Shown piece after piece: positions 13,883 to 36,138 of a stretch of DNA of 38,494 bases. The notes beneath the pieces are model-generated. The model was not told the DNA's origin. It was given only the letters and a program-made list of their open reading frames with translations, and searched no databases. A program made the position numbers and the translations under genes. The stretch is from IMG/VR virus record IMGVR_UViG_3300019784_000376, positions 1-38,494 of that record; one strand, 5' to 3'. Position 1 is the first letter of the stretch. Each line of letters begins with the position of its first letter. Source of the DNA: a virus (Duplodnaviria > Caudoviricetes).

Positions 13883-16800
13883 ATGGCTGGTAATACTGGT
13901 AGTCCATTATGTGCAGAACTCAACCGTATCGCAAACTATGGCGTATACCCAGATAGAGATGACTTCCTAGAAGAGCAAGGTGCTGCCAACGTTTGGGCAG
14001 GTACCACAGGTCAAGGGTTATTGGGTGCTCTAAATTATATTGTTGACCCTAACCGTACAGATAATAATTACAAGGGACTCACTGCAGTTTGTAATGAACT
14101 AGCAGGAACTACTGGACTGTCTGATGTTGATGCACTACGCACCATCAATCACCCAGCAGAGGTACTACTTAAGGGAACCACTGCACGCTCTGCTTCTTAC
14201 TATGTAGATGCTGCTACTCCACGCTACAACTATCCTGGGTATATTGAATATACTGGTTTGTCTGGTCAATATATTTCAGTTCCCGATGAGGCAGCATTAC
14301 GCATCACGGGAGATATTGACCTTCGTGCAAAAGTGACATTAAATAGTTGGACCACTAACACAGCATTCATAGCAAAACGCAATGCCACAACAGCATACAA
14401 TTTTTACTTAAATGCTAGTGGAACTTTATCAATGGGTTGGTCCACTGATGGAACTACATTATTTTCCATTGCTAGCACTGTTACTACTGGTTTATCTGAT
14501 GGTGCCACTAAATGGGTTAGAGCAACGTTTGACGTTGACAATGGAGCAGGTGGAAAAACTGTTACATTTTATTTATCCGATGACGGGGTTAACTGGACAC
14601 AGTTAGGAACTGCCACTACTCAGGCAGGTACAACAAGTATGTTTGCTAGCACCGTACCAGTTGAAATTGGTTCACTTGCAGGTGGAACAACATTCAATCT
14701 TAATGGAAAAATTTATCAAGCACAAATTTTTTCAAGCCTTAATGGAACGAATAAAGTACTTGATGTAGACCTAACAACTAATGTTACATCTGCTACCTTT
14801 AATCAGTTCACTGCTACTACTGGTCAGTTAGCAACAATTAACGGTCAAGATACTCTGACTAATGGTGGCACTGCTGGCTCACTACTACCAACTACTGTTG
14901 GCTCTAGCACCTCTGCAGACTCTAACGACCCTAAGTTCCTAGACCATACTGGCACTAACTATGTGTATCTGCCTGGGACTATTACAAATTATTTGGAAGT
15001 ACCAGATGCTGCTGCCCTTGACATTACAGGTGATATTGACCTACGCTGGTATGGAGCACTTGACGATTGGACTCCAGCCACTCAAAATGAATTACTTGCT
15101 AAGCAAACACTAAGCAATCGCAGTTACAAGATAGCAATTAACTCAACAGGTTTTGTTACTTTTCAATGGTCAACCGATGGTTCTACTATGATAACAGCAG
15201 CAAGCAGTGTTGCAACAGGCGTAACAGACGGCGCAGCAAAATGGGTCCGTGTGACTCTTGACGTAAACAATGGTGCCTCTGGCAACGATGTTAAGTTCTT
15301 TCTATCAGACAACGGAACAAGTTGGACACAGTTGGGCAGTACAGTAACAAATGCTGGTGTTACAAGCATTTATGTTGGTACGGCACCTGTGCGTATTGGA
15401 GCAATTCCTGATATCGGTACGACTCCACTTACAGGCAAAGTTTACCGCGCCCAAATCCTCAACGGCATTGACGGTACAACAGTCCTCGATGTGGACACCT
15501 CAGTTATTACTGCTGGTGCTGCTACATCCTTTACCGCAGTTACTGGTCAAACAGTTACCATCAACCGTGCAACCTCTGGACGCAAGACTGTTGCTGTAAC
15601 TCAACCTACTTGGCTCTTTGGTACTGATGACTATATGGAAGTCAACAACCGCTATATGGCTCATTCAACTGCAGCCGAGAACTATGTCTACCTCTCTGGT
15701 AACTCTGGCAACTATATGTCAGTTGCAGATAATCCACCGTTGGATATTACAGGTGACTTGGACCTAAGAGTTCAAGCAGCACTAGACGATTGGACTCCTG
15801 CAGCATCAACTGGTCTTGTTGCAAAATGGCTTACAACTGGAAACCAACGTTCATATAGATTAGATTTGAATACAAGTGGAAATCTAGTTTTATTTTGGTC
15901 AACAAATGGAACTGCAGTAAACTCGCAAACATCTACTGCAGCATTGTCGCTTACTGATGGAGCCGTAAAGTGGGTGAGAGCAACCATTGATATTGATAAT
16001 GGTGCTTCAGGTCACGATATTAAATTCTGGACTTCAGATAATGGAACTACTTGGACACAGTTGGGTACAACTATTGTCGGTGCTGGAACTACAAGCATTT
16101 ACTCTGGTACAGCAACCTTAGATATTGGAGCGATTGTTGGTGGTTCTCCAGCCAAGGGTAAGTTCTATCGTGCTCAAGTCCTTAACGGTATTGATGGCAC
16201 AATAGTCCTAGATGCTGATGCCTCAGTCATTACACTGCCATCTCAGACTACATTTGTAGACCGTTCAAGCAATGCCTACACAGTTACTATCAACAAGTCT
16301 GGCGTTGGTACATTCGTATCTACTGGCAACTATATGTATCTGCCTGGTATTTCAACCAACTATGCCTCAGTACCTGACAGTGCAGCGTTAGATATTACAG
16401 GTGACATTGATTTGCGTGTAAAGGTAGCAATGGACGACTGGACACCGAGTGCAATAAATGTATTGCTGGCAAAGCGACCAAATGGCTCAAGTCAGCAAAG
16501 TTATTTCTTCTACCTAAATACCGATGGAACAATTAGTATTGGTTGGACAACAGACGGAGCAACATTAGTTACAAAAGGTTCTACCGTAGCAACAGGAATT
16601 GCCGATGGTGTCACTAAGTGGGTTCGCGCAACTCTTGATGTTGATAATGGAGCATCAGGTAACTCTGTTCAATTCTTCACCTCAGATGATGGACTTACTT
16701 GGACCCAATTAGGTTCAACAGTAGTAACTGCTGGAGTTACAAGCATTTATTCTGGAACAGGAATCCTAGAAATAGGTTCACAATTTACTGGAGCAAGTGC

Positions 16801-33036: not shown

Positions 33037-34320
33037 TCATGCGTTAGCAACTATCTTGTTGTTGATGTCTACTGATTGTATCTTGTCCAACCTAGAGTAC
33101 AGGTCGGGGTAGAGTCCATTGTTGGACACTACATAGTCAGCGAACCAGTCCCAAGATAATGCGCCAAGTTTGACGTCATCTAGGCGTAGGTCTCTAGTGT
33201 ATTCTACCATGGCTTGCGCTAAGTCTAGAGCACTTAGCACCCCACTTGTGTTCATTGTGCCCCTAAAGAAGCGCAATTCTATGGTGTGTGCGTTCTGAGT
33301 ATTGACCGCAGAGTATCTCTCTGAGGGTGTGAACGCGGGACTTGCTACCTTATGCTTGAGTGAGAACACAGGTCTGTCATACTCATCAAAGGTGTACACG
33401 TCATTAAACCTAGCGAACCTAGACTTACGACCTGCAAACTTCATCATGTGTGGTGCGTTGTGGTACACAAAGGCTATGAACCTATGCAAGTGTGCGCCAC
33501 TCTTAAATCCTTTGCGACTTAGGTGTATGTGTAAGCCACAGGTATCTGTATCCCATGACCTAGCACCATACTTAGTGCGCAACAATTCTATCGTATCCCA
33601 TAGTAACTTACTATTCTCTCGATACTCTTGATGAGTATGAGGGTGGGTTACAATCTCGAACCCGTTGCCAATACTTCCGTCATGCTTGAGGTATGCTATG
33701 CCGTCTAGATTACTAGAGGCGTACCTAGCACCACTATCAAGCGATTGTACCTCTGTCTCTAACTCGAAGCCTAGATACATGTTGTGCTTGCTTGTACCCT
33801 TAAACTTAGGGTTAGGCTTGCATGAGTAGTCGTGAATAGTACCGCTATTACGATACGCACGACAGCACCTATCGTTATCGTTGTCACGACAATCGCAAGA
33901 GTTATCATTGGTGAAACTCTCGTCACAATCCTCACACCAGTAACACTCTGACTCATAGCAACGCTCACAGTATGGCGTATCCTGTACATAAGTACAATCA
34001 CCTGAGTACGACTCAGAACATGAGTCGCAATAGTAACTGTAATTTTCCCAGCAATACTCACACCATGACTCGTCTCTGTCTACTGTGCGACTAGAGTCAT
34101 TGTCCATGCCGTCCTCGCAACGATTACAGTAACTAGCGCAATCATCACAGTAACTCATGACTCCAACGACTATGCGTTGTTCCATGTCTCTGACATCATC
34201 ACAATCCTCACACACAAACACACAATCTGTGCAATAAGCGTGCTCGTTCATTACTATCTCGTCCCCGTCATCTATTGTAGATGAACAGGTCGTACACTCT
34301 CTAGTGTTATCCTCGTCCAT
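33037..34320 (-). CDS. Putative amidoligase (COOH-NH2 ligase, glutamine-synthetase fold) with an N-terminal CxxC repeat array
   Basis: GFELE, DGS, FEIVTHP, CGLHIH, RYSAVN and TIELRFF motifs; about nine CxxC pairs in the first ~150 aa. Confidence 0.85.
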   Translation of the reverse strand: MDEDNTRECTTCSSTIDDGDEIVMNEHAYCTDCVFVCEDCDDVRDMEQRIVVGVMSYCDDCASYCNRCEDGMDNDSSRTVDRDESWCEYCWENYSYYCDSCSESYSGDCTYVQDTPYCERCYESECYWCEDCDESFTNDNSCDCRDNDNDRCCRAYRNSGTIHDYSCKPNPKFKGTSKHNMYLGFELETEVQSLDSGARYASSNLDGIAYLKHDGSIGNGFEIVTHPHTHQEYRENSKLLWDTIELLRTKYGARSWDTDTCGLHIHLSRKGFKSGAHLHRFIAFVYHNAPHMMKFAGRKSRFARFNDVYTFDEYDRPVFSLKHKVASPAFTPSERYSAVNTQNAHTIELRFFRGTMNTSGVLSALDLAQAMVEYTRDLRLDDVKLGALSWDWFADYVVSNNGLYPDLYSRLDKIQSVDINNKIVANA

Positions 34321-34353
34321 GTATCTCACCCCCTCTCGCTATCTTGTAGTTGT

Positions 34354-34382
34354 AGTGTAGCATAGTGCTACGCCTTTGTCAA
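34354..34382 (-). promoter_or_regulatory. SigA-type promoter P5 (amidoligase operon)
   Basis: TTGACA-17-TACACT with extended TG. Confidence 0.8.
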
Positions 34383-34556
34383 TTCTCTAGCGTTATCTAT
34401 AATCATGTCTGCAATCTTAGAGCGCAGGTCTTGTACCTCTAGCACTAGGCTAGGGAAATCGTTGCGCTTATGGGTATCCTCTTGCACTCTAAGTGCCATG
34501 CGGATTACCTCGACCTCACGTTGAGTAAGGTTCAATAGTAGGTTATCGTGCGTCAT
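34368..34556 (-). CDS. Hypothetical protein
   Basis: 62 aa ORF with GAGGG RBS. Confidence 0.6.
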   Translation of the reverse strand: MTHDNLLLNLTQREVEVIRMALRVQEDTHKRNDFPSLVLEVQDLRSKIADMIIDNARELTKA

Positions 34557-34683
34557 AGTAGCCCTCGTAACGCTTGAGTCTACGTTCTAAGACGTACACC
34601 CTGCGGAACGCTACCAATAGTACCATGTTCACCGATAGCAACGCTATCATCAACGCGAACATGTCACCTGTTGAAAGTGTCAT
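34543..34683 (-). CDS. Small membrane protein (46 aa, not in ORF track)
   Basis: MTLSTGDMFALMIALLSVNMVLLVAFRRVYVLERRLKRYEGYYDAR; GAGAGG RBS. Confidence 0.65.
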   Translation of the reverse strand: MTLSTGDMFALMIALLSVNMVLLVAFRRVYVLERRLKRYEGYYDAR

Positions 34684-34685
34684 GT

Positions 34686-34784
34686 CTAACCTCTCTCACA
34701 AGGACACCATGAGCCTAGATTAAGTTTGCCACACTTAGGACAAGTCCAAAACCTATCCTTGCGTGGGTCGCTTTCACTACTCAT
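34686..34784 (-). CDS. 32 aa zinc-finger microprotein (RanBP2-like spacing, not in ORF track)
   Basis: MSSESDPRKDRFWTCPKCGKLNLGSWCPCERG; starts just downstream of promoter P4. Confidence 0.6.
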   Translation of the reverse strand: MSSESDPRKDRFWTCPKCGKLNLGSWCPCERG

Positions 34785-34795
34785 GAAGTACCCTT

Positions 34796-34824
34796 ATCTT
34801 ATCATGGCTTGACCCTGTTGTCAA
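34796..34824 (-). promoter_or_regulatory. SigA-type promoter P4
   Basis: TTGACA-17-TAAGAT with extended TG. Confidence 0.8.
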
Positions 34825-34825
34825 G

Positions 34826-34877
34826 TCGTGCCACGCTAGGGCTTGAACCTAGACCTACCCCCACAATCGGGCGTGGC
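34826..34877 (-). ncRNA. tRNA-like element: acceptor stem plus T-arm, without full D or anticodon arms
   Basis: GCCACG...CTAGG-TTCAAGC-CCTAG-CGTGGC-A. Confidence 0.55.
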
Positions 34878-34882
34878 TAATC

Positions 34883-35194
34883 TTAGTCGTTCGCGTCTAT
34901 GTGGACGCTAGGTAGCGTGGCGCGGAACTCGCGTTCGCGTTCGCTAAGTGCTAGGGCGCGTGCTAGGCGTTCCTGTTCCTGTTCGCTAAGGGTCGGTAGT
35001 ACGCGCTCAACCTTAGGCATGTTCGACTTTACGGCGTGGCGTGGGCGTGTACGGCGTACAGCCTTGCCATGTGTAGTGTCGCTCAACCGCCAACCGCGTG
35101 AGCCCAAGCGTGTGCTAGTGACTCGCACGTTAAGTGCGGTTATGCCATGAAAGTTGGTGTCTATACTATCCCGACCCGCAAGGGTCGATTTCAT
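34883..35194 (-). CDS. Hypothetical basic protein, first gene of the leftward (early) module
   Basis: 103 aa Arg-rich ORF with GAGAGG RBS downstream of promoter P3. Confidence 0.65.
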   Translation of the reverse strand: MKSTLAGRDSIDTNFHGITALNVRVTSTRLGSRGWRLSDTTHGKAVRRTRPRHAVKSNMPKVERVLPTLSEQEQERLARALALSEREREFRATLPSVHIDAND

Positions 35195-35226
35195 GCGTTG
35201 TCCTCTCTCGTTAATTTGTAAATCAT

Positions 35227-35255
35227 ACTTTACATGCTTTGTCTTACTTTGTCAA
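35227..35255 (-). promoter_or_regulatory. SigA-type promoter P3
   Basis: TTGACA-17-TAAAGT; GACAC 9 nt upstream of the -35. Confidence 0.8.
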
Positions 35256-35261
35256 ATTGTC

Positions 35262-35410
35262 GGCGTGTCGTGTTGGTAAAGGGTGAGTCGTGCAACCAAC
35301 CCCATTGGGTCTGCTACTAGTGGCAATCAAGCCACCCTTTACCATGACACTATTTAGTTTGACTAGATAAGTGACGCTCCAACCTTTGCGGGCTAGGTCT
35401 GCTTATCTTG
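35262..35410 (-). ncRNA. Candidate ~150 nt structured RNA transcribed from P2
   Basis: 12 bp perfect stem (35274-35285 with 35333-35344), an AGATAAG/CTTATCT stem, and two copies of AGCAGACC...GGTTGG. Confidence 0.5.
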
Positions 35411-35415
35411 TGAGA

Positions 35416-35444
35416 ATTGTATCAAACAAAACTCACTTTGTAAA
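35416..35444 (-). promoter_or_regulatory. SigA-type promoter P2
   Basis: TTTACA-17-TACAAT with extended TG; GACAC 20 nt upstream of the -35. Confidence 0.75.
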
Positions 35445-35519
35445 GGTTACCCACGACCTTTGGCGTGTCGTACTTTGTGACCCTTTGGGGGGTGAGCCCC
35501 CTATCCGATTACAAGGCAA

Positions 35520-35548
35520 AGACTACACGCTCACCGACCCTTTGTCAA
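35520..35548 (-). promoter_or_regulatory. SigA-type promoter P1
   Basis: TTGACA-17-TAGTCT. Confidence 0.75.
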
Positions 35549-35580: not shown

Positions 35581-35665
35581 CTGAGAGTTTCCTGAGAATT
35601 ACCTGAGAGATACGGGCATGGATAACCTTAGAGTTTCCTGTGAACTTCCTGAGAATTAACTGAGC
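35581..35665. repeat. Array of seven 11 bp-period direct repeats (CTGAGA core)
   Basis: Units start at 35581, 35592, 35603, 35627, 35638, 35649 and 35660. Confidence 0.85.
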
Positions 35666-36138
35666 CCCCCTTAATGGTGGACACTTGGGGGATAGTCTGT
35701 CTAAGATTAAACCTTTAATTTATAGTTAGACAAAACAAGGCATAGTGTCTACCCATCAAATAGAGACAAATACACATGGAGACAAATCAATTTGTCGACA
35801 AATCGATAAGTCGATAAGTCTATTTGACCCTAGAGTCTTTTAACTGGGGCCCCTGTACATATTATGTATCCCATTAAAATTTTCTGTTATATGGGGCCCA
35901 TATGCCCTGTGACCAGGGCTTTTATATATATCAGTGGGGCTAATAAAAATATATTCAAACTGGTTGTTCGGTTTTAGCACTTTGAACAGGTTATCTATTA
36001 TGTATAATAATACATAACGGAGTCGCTCCGTTTAAGACTCCGCGACTCTTATATATAATAATATAATATATATATTGGGATAGTTATATCCGTTTACTGA
36101 CGGGTGTTTAATGTGGGTTTAGCAGGGGGATATAACTG

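Follow-up and report, generated by a model that had tools for sequence, protein, structure and literature searches.

Comparative sequence analysis indicates that a 48 nt element in the phage genome studied here is a genuine conserved fold of the top half of a tRNA, located after a stop codon in the early region. We lean towards the prediction that host RNase P cuts this element in cis at its first nucleotide (G1) and in this way punctuates the polycistronic early mRNA. The window, i.e., the whole stretch of DNA that was analysed (38,494 nt), is an entire virus record that is 97% complete, and the genome occurs in freshwater metagenomes. It encodes terminase, portal, major head, primase/helicase, a sigma factor and a WhiB-like gene, and from the latter we infer an actinobacterial host. 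The block of promoters and small genes on the minus strand that holds the element is read as the early region. Promoter-like sites number 13 in this block versus 5.5 expected, and the first sigma-70-like -35 box is found at 35548-35543 (minus strand). The features of the element and its surroundings are:

35290..35324, minus strand: second early-region RNA module, TAGTAG type; the window copy is imperfect
34883..35194, minus strand: first early ORF, 103 aa, from the ORF list; tblastn relatives with 62-100% identity
34877-34872, minus strand: acceptor 5' strand, read from the sequence
34871-34853, minus strand: connector, 19 nt, read from the sequence
34860..34871, minus strand: possible 4 bp side hairpin in the connector with a variable 4 nt loop (weak)
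34853..34859, minus strand: GG-containing linker, putatively corresponding to tRNA G18-G19 and to the GGCA motif in the 40 nt class described below
34852-34848 / 34840-34836, minus strand: T-stem, 5 bp, read from the sequence
34847-34841, minus strand: T-loop, 7 nt, UUCRANY type, from the sequence; in 19/40 slot-covering relatives
34835-34830, minus strand: acceptor 3' strand, 6 bp with the 5' strand, including G1-C72; read from the sequence
34829 and 34828, minus strand: discriminator A73 and C74, read from the sequence, then G-A
34796..34824, minus strand: sigma-70-like promoter, the fourth such, right after the element; context, not conserved with the element
34686..34784, minus strand: optional cysteine-rich mini-ORF, 32 aa; downstream context, no Pfam match

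The 103 aa ORF upstream of the element matches no PHROG or Pfam family. Its TAA is at 34885-34883, and five nt separate this stop codon from G1 at 34877, just as a preliminary description of this DNA had it. Downstream, the -35 box (TTGACA) of the fourth promoter is at 34824-34819, 5 nt behind the element, and no terminator-like site was called at the element. The 32 aa mini-ORF is present in some relatives and cleanly missing or replaced in others. In relatives the TAGTAG module forms a 6 bp helix with G1-C72, followed by A-C and lacking a T-loop; this helix covaries, with 13 distinct variants that keep 5-6 of 6 pairs each. The window copy was missed by the regular expression that finds the module in relatives, and folds differently. 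Further promoter-led RNA modules (TAGTAG, GAGCGTC, AATCGGATAG) were noticed at 35290-35530 (minus strand) and are exchanged among relatives; stem changes are visible in their alignment, and they have no Rfam match. Short direct repeats and an imperfect 36 nt inverted repeat at 35581-35665 and 35761-35832 lie where a gap separates terminase from the early promoters, and perhaps mark a genome end or an origin.

The element itself spans 34830-34877 on the minus strand. Its sequence, the helix of 11 bp in total, the 19 nt connector and the T-loop are as first described, and the lack of an encoded CCA was confirmed too, position 75 being a G. The acceptor/T helix can be partitioned into 6 + 5 or 7 + 4 bp. 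The possible side hairpin in the connector (34871-34860) had been overlooked; in an alignment of 20 rows 92% of its cells are paired, with a change on both sides in only one pair, and its predicted pair probability is 0.06-0.30. Within the window's own lineage no compensatory change was found inside the linker. A descriptor comprising a T-loop, 11-12 bp, G1-C and a connector of 6-25 nt, which was composed after the element had been seen, has the element as its single match in the window and matched in none of 200 shuffles. The folding energy of the single element is not unusual (z of -0.49 and -1.06). Its predicted minimum-energy fold lacks the T-arm, the proposed fold lies 1.8 kcal/mol above this minimum, and the predicted pair probability is about 0.19 for the T-stem versus 0.88-1.0 for the acceptor. 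Thermodynamic folding by itself thus does not pick out the window element.

We compared the element with known families. ARAGORN called 0 genes in the window (no tRNA, no tmRNA), in line with the earlier expectation that no full tRNA would be found, and Rfam gave no relevant match there (no tRNA, mascRNA, YrlA or c4). A tRNA gene was rejected, as there is no cloverleaf with an anticodon arm and the helix has 11 bp, not the 12 bp of an acceptor/T stack. A tmRNA or its tRNA-like domain was dismissed because of C3-G70 in place of G3-U70, the lack of a tag frame and the negative ARAGORN result, and a YrlA Y RNA because the genome has no match to Ro60 (TROVE) and none in Rfam. The mascRNA-menRNA family (RF01684) does not match the window; among 20 element-bearing loci run against Rfam, the only match was a sub-threshold one to mascRNA in L197 (26.5 bits versus a gathering threshold of 42.5). 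The preliminary description had considered an attP site unlikely, and rightly so: an attP in a tRNA 3' half was rejected on 0 matches for PF00589 and PF00239 in the 97% complete genome, in which searches for tyrosine integrase, resolvase and TROVE genes were negative. On 49 related loci ARAGORN called one ordinary tRNA-Trp, in L070. Three cultured-phage regions matched only GOLLD in Rfam, with c4 models unmatched; the GOLLD RNA lies in Mycobacterium phage Send513 (L217:23206-23666), scores above the Rfam threshold (180 bits) and is unannotated in the record. BLAST of the window element and of an allele without T-loop against cultured phages gave matches at chance level only, so the window lineage has no cultured member among the phages searched.

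Exact and degenerate sequence patterns retrieved 14 and 28 loci related to the window. As such patterns fix part of the sequence, 47 more loci were gathered via the neighbouring amidoligase; seven of them fall short of the slot of the element and 40 cover it. Some of the 40 are near-duplicates, and L043 is virtually identical to the window. A three-way fold ending in A-C is present in all 40, and G1-C72 in 37/40. The T-loop occurs in 19/40, including L051, L071 and L077/L078/L083 with wholly different stems. The remaining 21 have a YUCRYGA loop and another side hairpin on an unchanged acceptor end. Since these loci lack the T-loop on the same acceptor end, the T-loop would be dispensable in the window lineage. 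The YUCRYGA loop is, in our reading, more like an anticodon loop. Such alleles (L047:3459-3506 and 20 other relatives, as well as a module at L047:3057-3100) have 7 nt loops of YUCRYRA type, which resemble anticodon loops and sit on the acceptor end that the T-loop alleles also have. An anticodon that reads start codons was tried for them and rejected, since the triplet varies (CAC, CAT, CGC). A second module, which overlaps an upstream promoter, likewise exists with both loop types among relatives.

For covariation we aligned 20 rows, consisting of the T-loop copies of the window lineage and L026/L028 from an unrelated phage group (the strict descriptor had missed L077, L078, L083 and L028). 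In this alignment 97% of 297 cells are paired, compared with 27-62% in slid controls, and 10/15 pairs change on both sides; five rows supply most of these changes, and L077 is partly misaligned. The preliminary description had expected stems and T-loop to be conserved in relatives. The covarying stems and acceptor end bear this out, while the T-loop (19/40) does not. As far as these alignments go, stems and acceptor end are conserved in the window lineage and the T-loop is optional. Five loci (L045, L054, L064, L065, L068) carry an extra inserted ORF, and there the element sits after the stop codon of the new ORF; it thus tracks junctions and not one particular gene. The element had also been described as abutting a promoter (P4). 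This is true of the window but fails as part of a conserved unit, as no promoter follows the element in ten more distant loci (those with the slot among L074-L079 and L081-L085), which have a hairpin and a ribosome binding site (RBS) there.

Similar elements are found far beyond this lineage. A scan with a generic T-loop pattern covered 21 of 64 parts of the collection and a second pattern 22 of 64, so that counts for the class are lower bounds; both scans revealed 40 nt elements that are repeated ahead of small genes. The wider set of 380 sequences is made up of the window and 379 loci that overlap in part, and it may include a few chance or unrelated hits. BLAST with 40 nt elements (E up to 10) found 113 Streptomyces and 35 Mycobacterium phages among 176 records, and four cultured records were examined in detail. 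The descriptor finds 12 copies in Send513 (43.5 kb), six in Predator (45 kb), four in phiHau3 and, over 30 kb, none in Rabbitrun; shuffles of the cultured phages average at most 0.015 copies. With model R1, for which some cultured-phage copies were in the training set, the numbers are 14, 7, 6-7 and 1, respectively, and one complete uncultured phage has 15 matches, one of which is probably doubled by a terminal repeat. None of the elements is annotated in the GenBank records of Send513, Predator and phiHau3. Three Send513 copies (L217:14150-14194, 14612-14654 and 33295-33334) overlap the annotated hypothetical genes 54, 56 and 79, a sign that starts or ORFs may have been mis-called there. One strict pattern applied to 185,579 species genomes gave 18 matches, of which 16 carry actinobacterial titles; the descriptor confirms 16.

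Among 212 distinct cores of the wider set, 187 have 11 bp and 25 have 12 bp; G1-C72 and the stems are demanded by the descriptor. The layout 5 + 11 + 6 is shared by 142 cores, and in these we looked at contacts that the descriptor does not demand. Positions 7 and 13 are paired in 141/142, while position 14 pairs with T-loop position 60, and 15 with 59, in 140/142 each. For position 9/55 there are 132 cores with G/U and ten with A/G, with no exception. The four tertiary contacts are kept in 35 cores outside both search patterns and on a diverse subset of 49 rows. With 59/60 freed, A-U, G-C, C-G and U-A all occur at 14-60 (175/178 paired). Stem pairing is kept in 99.3% of 686 cells though the stem sequences differ between copies. 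The covariation and permutation tests ignore relatedness, yet changes occur between copies of a single genome. By analogy with tRNA structure, the four covarying contacts imply that G9-G10 play the part of tRNA G18-G19, and they would rebuild the tRNA elbow in the 40 nt class, with G18/U55 swapping with A18/G55. In long connectors, a GG/AG rule fits 42/42 and 9/9 cases, and it discriminates poorly, because 25 of the 42 also contain AG and six of the nine also GG.

At the 3' side, 168 cores are free of the search constraints; N73 is a purine in 157, C74 is present in 160 and C75 in only ten. N-1 is A in 118 of them. A stop codon on the same strand lies within 20 nt upstream in 111/156 elements, versus 25/156 on the other strand and 309/3120 random sites; the distance has its mode at 6-8 nt, and 45/156 elements have no near stop. 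In annotated genomes the stop is 7-15 nt away for 12/13 copies in Send513 and 5/6 in Predator, and 24-39 nt away for 5/6 in phiHau3. An RBS plus ORF within 120 nt downstream is found for 96/150 elements, versus 10/150 on the other strand and 722/3000 random sites. A search for a -10 box upstream of the copies that have no near stop gave no signal (4/43).

Several arrays differ from this arrangement. An AT-rich (28% GC) non-coding array at L293:2867-4400 (IMGVR_UViG_3300035517_000474) has at least ten mini-tRNA-like units, each preceded by TGTGAA and mostly with no 40 aa ORF in between; its appearance is that of an independent gene array and not of mRNA punctuation. At L227:3001-3370, L403:1077-1466 and L396:1091-1234, neighbouring copies are separated by about 100-230 nt of repetitive, GC-rich spacer in which no clear ORF is seen. 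Nine loci (L125, L127, L130, L177, L178, L191, L200, L211, L212) hold tRNA-like genes of 68-70 nt with a 6 bp acceptor, a 5 bp T-stem (again 11 bp) and odd anticodon regions.

The window element and the 40 nt class have in common the 11 bp helix, the T-loop, R73-C74 and the placement directly after a stop. They differ in the connector (19 nt in the window versus 11 nt with the lone pair 7-13) and in the partition of the helix (6 + 5 or 7 + 4 versus 5 + 6). The tertiary contacts are established for the 40 nt class only, and the 19 nt connector of the window lies outside that set. Model R1 was built without rows of the window type; the element is its best match in the window (20.6 bits, E 0.0045; runner-up 8.9), with class members scoring 42-68 bits and a plain true tRNA T-arm 17.8. 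Copies with a side hairpin alternate with 40 nt copies in one array (L398:537-1950), which supports a common function; the genome is titled as a Gemmatimonadota MAG and is possibly a misbinned actinophage. By its features, and not by descent, we call the window element a putative longer-connector variant of the 40 nt class.

The conserved features are those read by RNase P, and together with cited precedents this leads to our reading of a cis-acting punctuation signal. PMC11143913 names G+1/C72, pairing of N73-C74-C75 and the T-loop ruler as determinants, and reading of tRNA-like features by the enzyme is also treated in PMC4919913. The window element has G+1/C72, a purine at 73, C74 and the T-loop; C75 and a twelfth pair are absent. 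For B. subtilis, PMC1874595 describes that a compensatory swap of the C74 contact gives full rescue and that precursors lacking CCA are cut in vivo; as RNase Z is poor on long 5' leaders according to the same paper, RNase P would act first. In M. smegmatis YrlA is cut at the RNase P site in vivo (PMC4201824), and mycobacteria possess RNase Z and a CCA-adding enzyme (PMC10673834). That the element is an mRNA processing signal had been proposed before, and both its position and its end features fit this prediction.

We envisage the following course. Host RNA polymerase would transcribe through the gene junction, and the RNA would fold just beyond the footprint of the ribosome that terminates upstream. 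RNase P would then bind the elbow and the G1-C72/A73/C74 end and cleave 5' of G1. The upstream mRNA would retain its stop codon and a tail of 5-8 nt, while the 5' end of the downstream mRNA would be base-paired and tRNA-like, in many cases with a hairpin and an RBS behind it, and would shield the message from 5'-end-dependent decay. Cutting by RNase Z and the adding of CCA may follow as secondary events. The predicted outcome is a gene-by-gene punctuation of the polycistronic early message.

Some observations speak against cleavage by RNase P. The helix of 11 bp, the mostly absent C75 and the prevalence of A at N-1 are none of them optimal; the ruler of the enzyme is 12 bp, one more than here, and replacement of the T-loop lowers and shifts cleavage in model substrates (both according to PMC11143913). 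The T-loop is absent in 21/40 close relatives, and the predicted ensemble of the window element prefers another fold. RNA contigs X6 (34316-34814 and 34948-35494) and X9 (34615-34777 and 34931-35467) flank the element with a gap over it, and RNA contig X24 ends at 34820; the DNA run X3 spans the element, and a contig from the RNA library of a relative (X22, depth 2.1) crosses it, whereas X23 contributed no contig. Given a depth of 2-7, differing stops and other gaps, the RNA contigs neither support nor refute cutting. A more far-reaching version holds that in several unrelated groups of actinophages mimics of the elbow with 40-50 nt, smaller than any natural one found, both punctuate early genes via RNase P, giving capped, single-gene messages, and, with up to about 14 highly transcribed copies per genome, titrate RNase P, so that the host's tRNAs mature more slowly while the phage takes over. 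We put this forward only tentatively.

An alternative, which we consider unlikely, is that the element stays uncut and acts as a compact exonuclease barrier, either halting 3'-to-5' decay as the 3' end of the upstream mRNA or halting RNase J at G1; its 3' end would possibly be trimmed to C74 and completed to CCA. The tightest spacing is indeed that to the upstream stop (mode 6-8 nt), in the window a promoter follows immediately, as behind a 3' end, with no terminator-like site called, 11 bp deviates from the RNase P ruler, and alleles without T-loop occupy the same slot. For a barrier, however, G1-C72, a purine at 73, C74 and a constant helix length would be superfluous, yet these are kept across three architectures. 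The downstream hairpin and RBS at a regular distance (quartiles 38-50 nt), with hairpin z values below -1.5 in 112/211 cases, also argue against it.

Still less probable, in our view, is a released mini-tRNA that acts in trans by titrating RNase P or factors that bind elbow and acceptor, or as a decoy for toxins directed at tRNA ends. Points in favour of such a role are the exactness with which the 40 nt class mimics the elbow, the presence of up to about 14 copies in the strongly transcribed regions of a genome, and the copies with no near stop or in a non-coding array (L293), and an 11 bp helix might bind but turn over slowly. The decoy idea of the preliminary description is nevertheless weakened. 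The element has no anticodon, and an RNA of this kind gives anticodon nucleases no target and offers Rel no A-site binding that depends on a codon. Copies in one genome differ in their acceptors (nine different sequences among 11 Send513 copies), G3-U70 occurs in only 3/212 cores, and one copy per junction suits action in cis. The window has a single T-loop copy.

We give little credit to a signal coupled to translation or transcription, i.e., readthrough, reinitiation at the entry channel or a nascent-RNA antiterminator. Stimulators of readthrough and frameshifting sit about 6-8 nt from the stop, which matches the stop distance seen here, and repetition along long early operons fits antitermination, but all three stop codons are found upstream, several phiHau3 copies are 24-39 nt away, and the tRNA-end features would be left unexplained. 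It is highly improbable that the element is a functionless decayed tRNA gene or a repeat acting as DNA, such as an operator, an ssDNA hairpin or a site of integration or recombination, and covariation has, as far as sequence evidence goes, largely refuted this. T-arms are classic attP cores, units of the modular early region are swapped among relatives and one related module overlaps a promoter, but the genome has no integrase or resolvase, pairing persists in differing stems, and G-U pairs, strand bias and tertiary covariation point to an RNA under selection.

If RNase P punctuation is the function, the closest parallel would be the t-elements of plant mitochondria, which are described in PMC1920247 as non-coding tRNA-like folds that have a GGTTCRANYCC arm and serve RNase P or RNase Z as markers of mRNA ends. 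The window element shares their non-canonical tRNA-like fold with a T-arm motif but lies in a phage genome and not in a plant mitochondrial one. According to PMC1920247, t-elements have about 70-75 nt and coincide with mapped mRNA termini, whereas the phage elements have 40-50 nt, an 11 bp helix and predicted ends, and stand at successive gene junctions. The tRNA-like RNA of mascRNA and MEN beta (RF01684), named as RNase P substrates in PMC4919913, is also a small tRNA-like unit within a longer transcript; it belongs to animal lncRNAs and has a pair of D- and anticodon-like hairpins, which the phage elements lack. YrlA Y RNAs are likewise tRNA mimics of actinobacteria and phages, and that of M. 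smegmatis is cut by RNase P and receives CCA, but they are longer and linked to a Ro60 gene (PMC4201824). M3 RNA, C4 antisense RNA and T4 gene 32 mRNA are phage transcripts cut by host RNase P (PMC11143913); these are single loci or antisense regulators and not a repeated spacer that mimics the elbow. The tRNA-like domain of tmRNA has an acceptor, a T-arm and a reduced D region as well, while G3-U70, an encoded CCA and a tag frame are missing in the phage elements. In T7 and SPO1, RNase III sites lie between early genes behind strong host promoters. They too are a repeated signal for a host nuclease, but are long hairpins, and the signal here is tRNA-shaped. The phage elements would work like t-elements and mascRNA and, by analogy, like these RNase III sites; they belong to none of the named families.

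The literature searched turned up no account of these repeats, though an earlier listing in some large structured-RNA survey may exist. What is new is that the elements occur in cultured phages, that their tertiary contacts covary, and that alleles with and without T-loop are swapped. This swap, which occurs naturally within a single slot, offers a ready means to test which features count, and the presence of elements in cultured phages makes the prediction directly testable. If it is true, actinophages would have a natural 40 nt mimic of the tRNA elbow whose full 3D wiring (7-13, 14-60, 15-59, 9/55) is predicted by covariation, and which would be useful for understanding how RNase P measures substrates one pair short of tRNA. 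In mycobacteria and streptomycetes, the elements could also be used as compact processing cassettes when several genes are expressed together. For the phages themselves, such punctuation would represent a general, overlooked layer of early-gene control in actinophages, cultured ones included.
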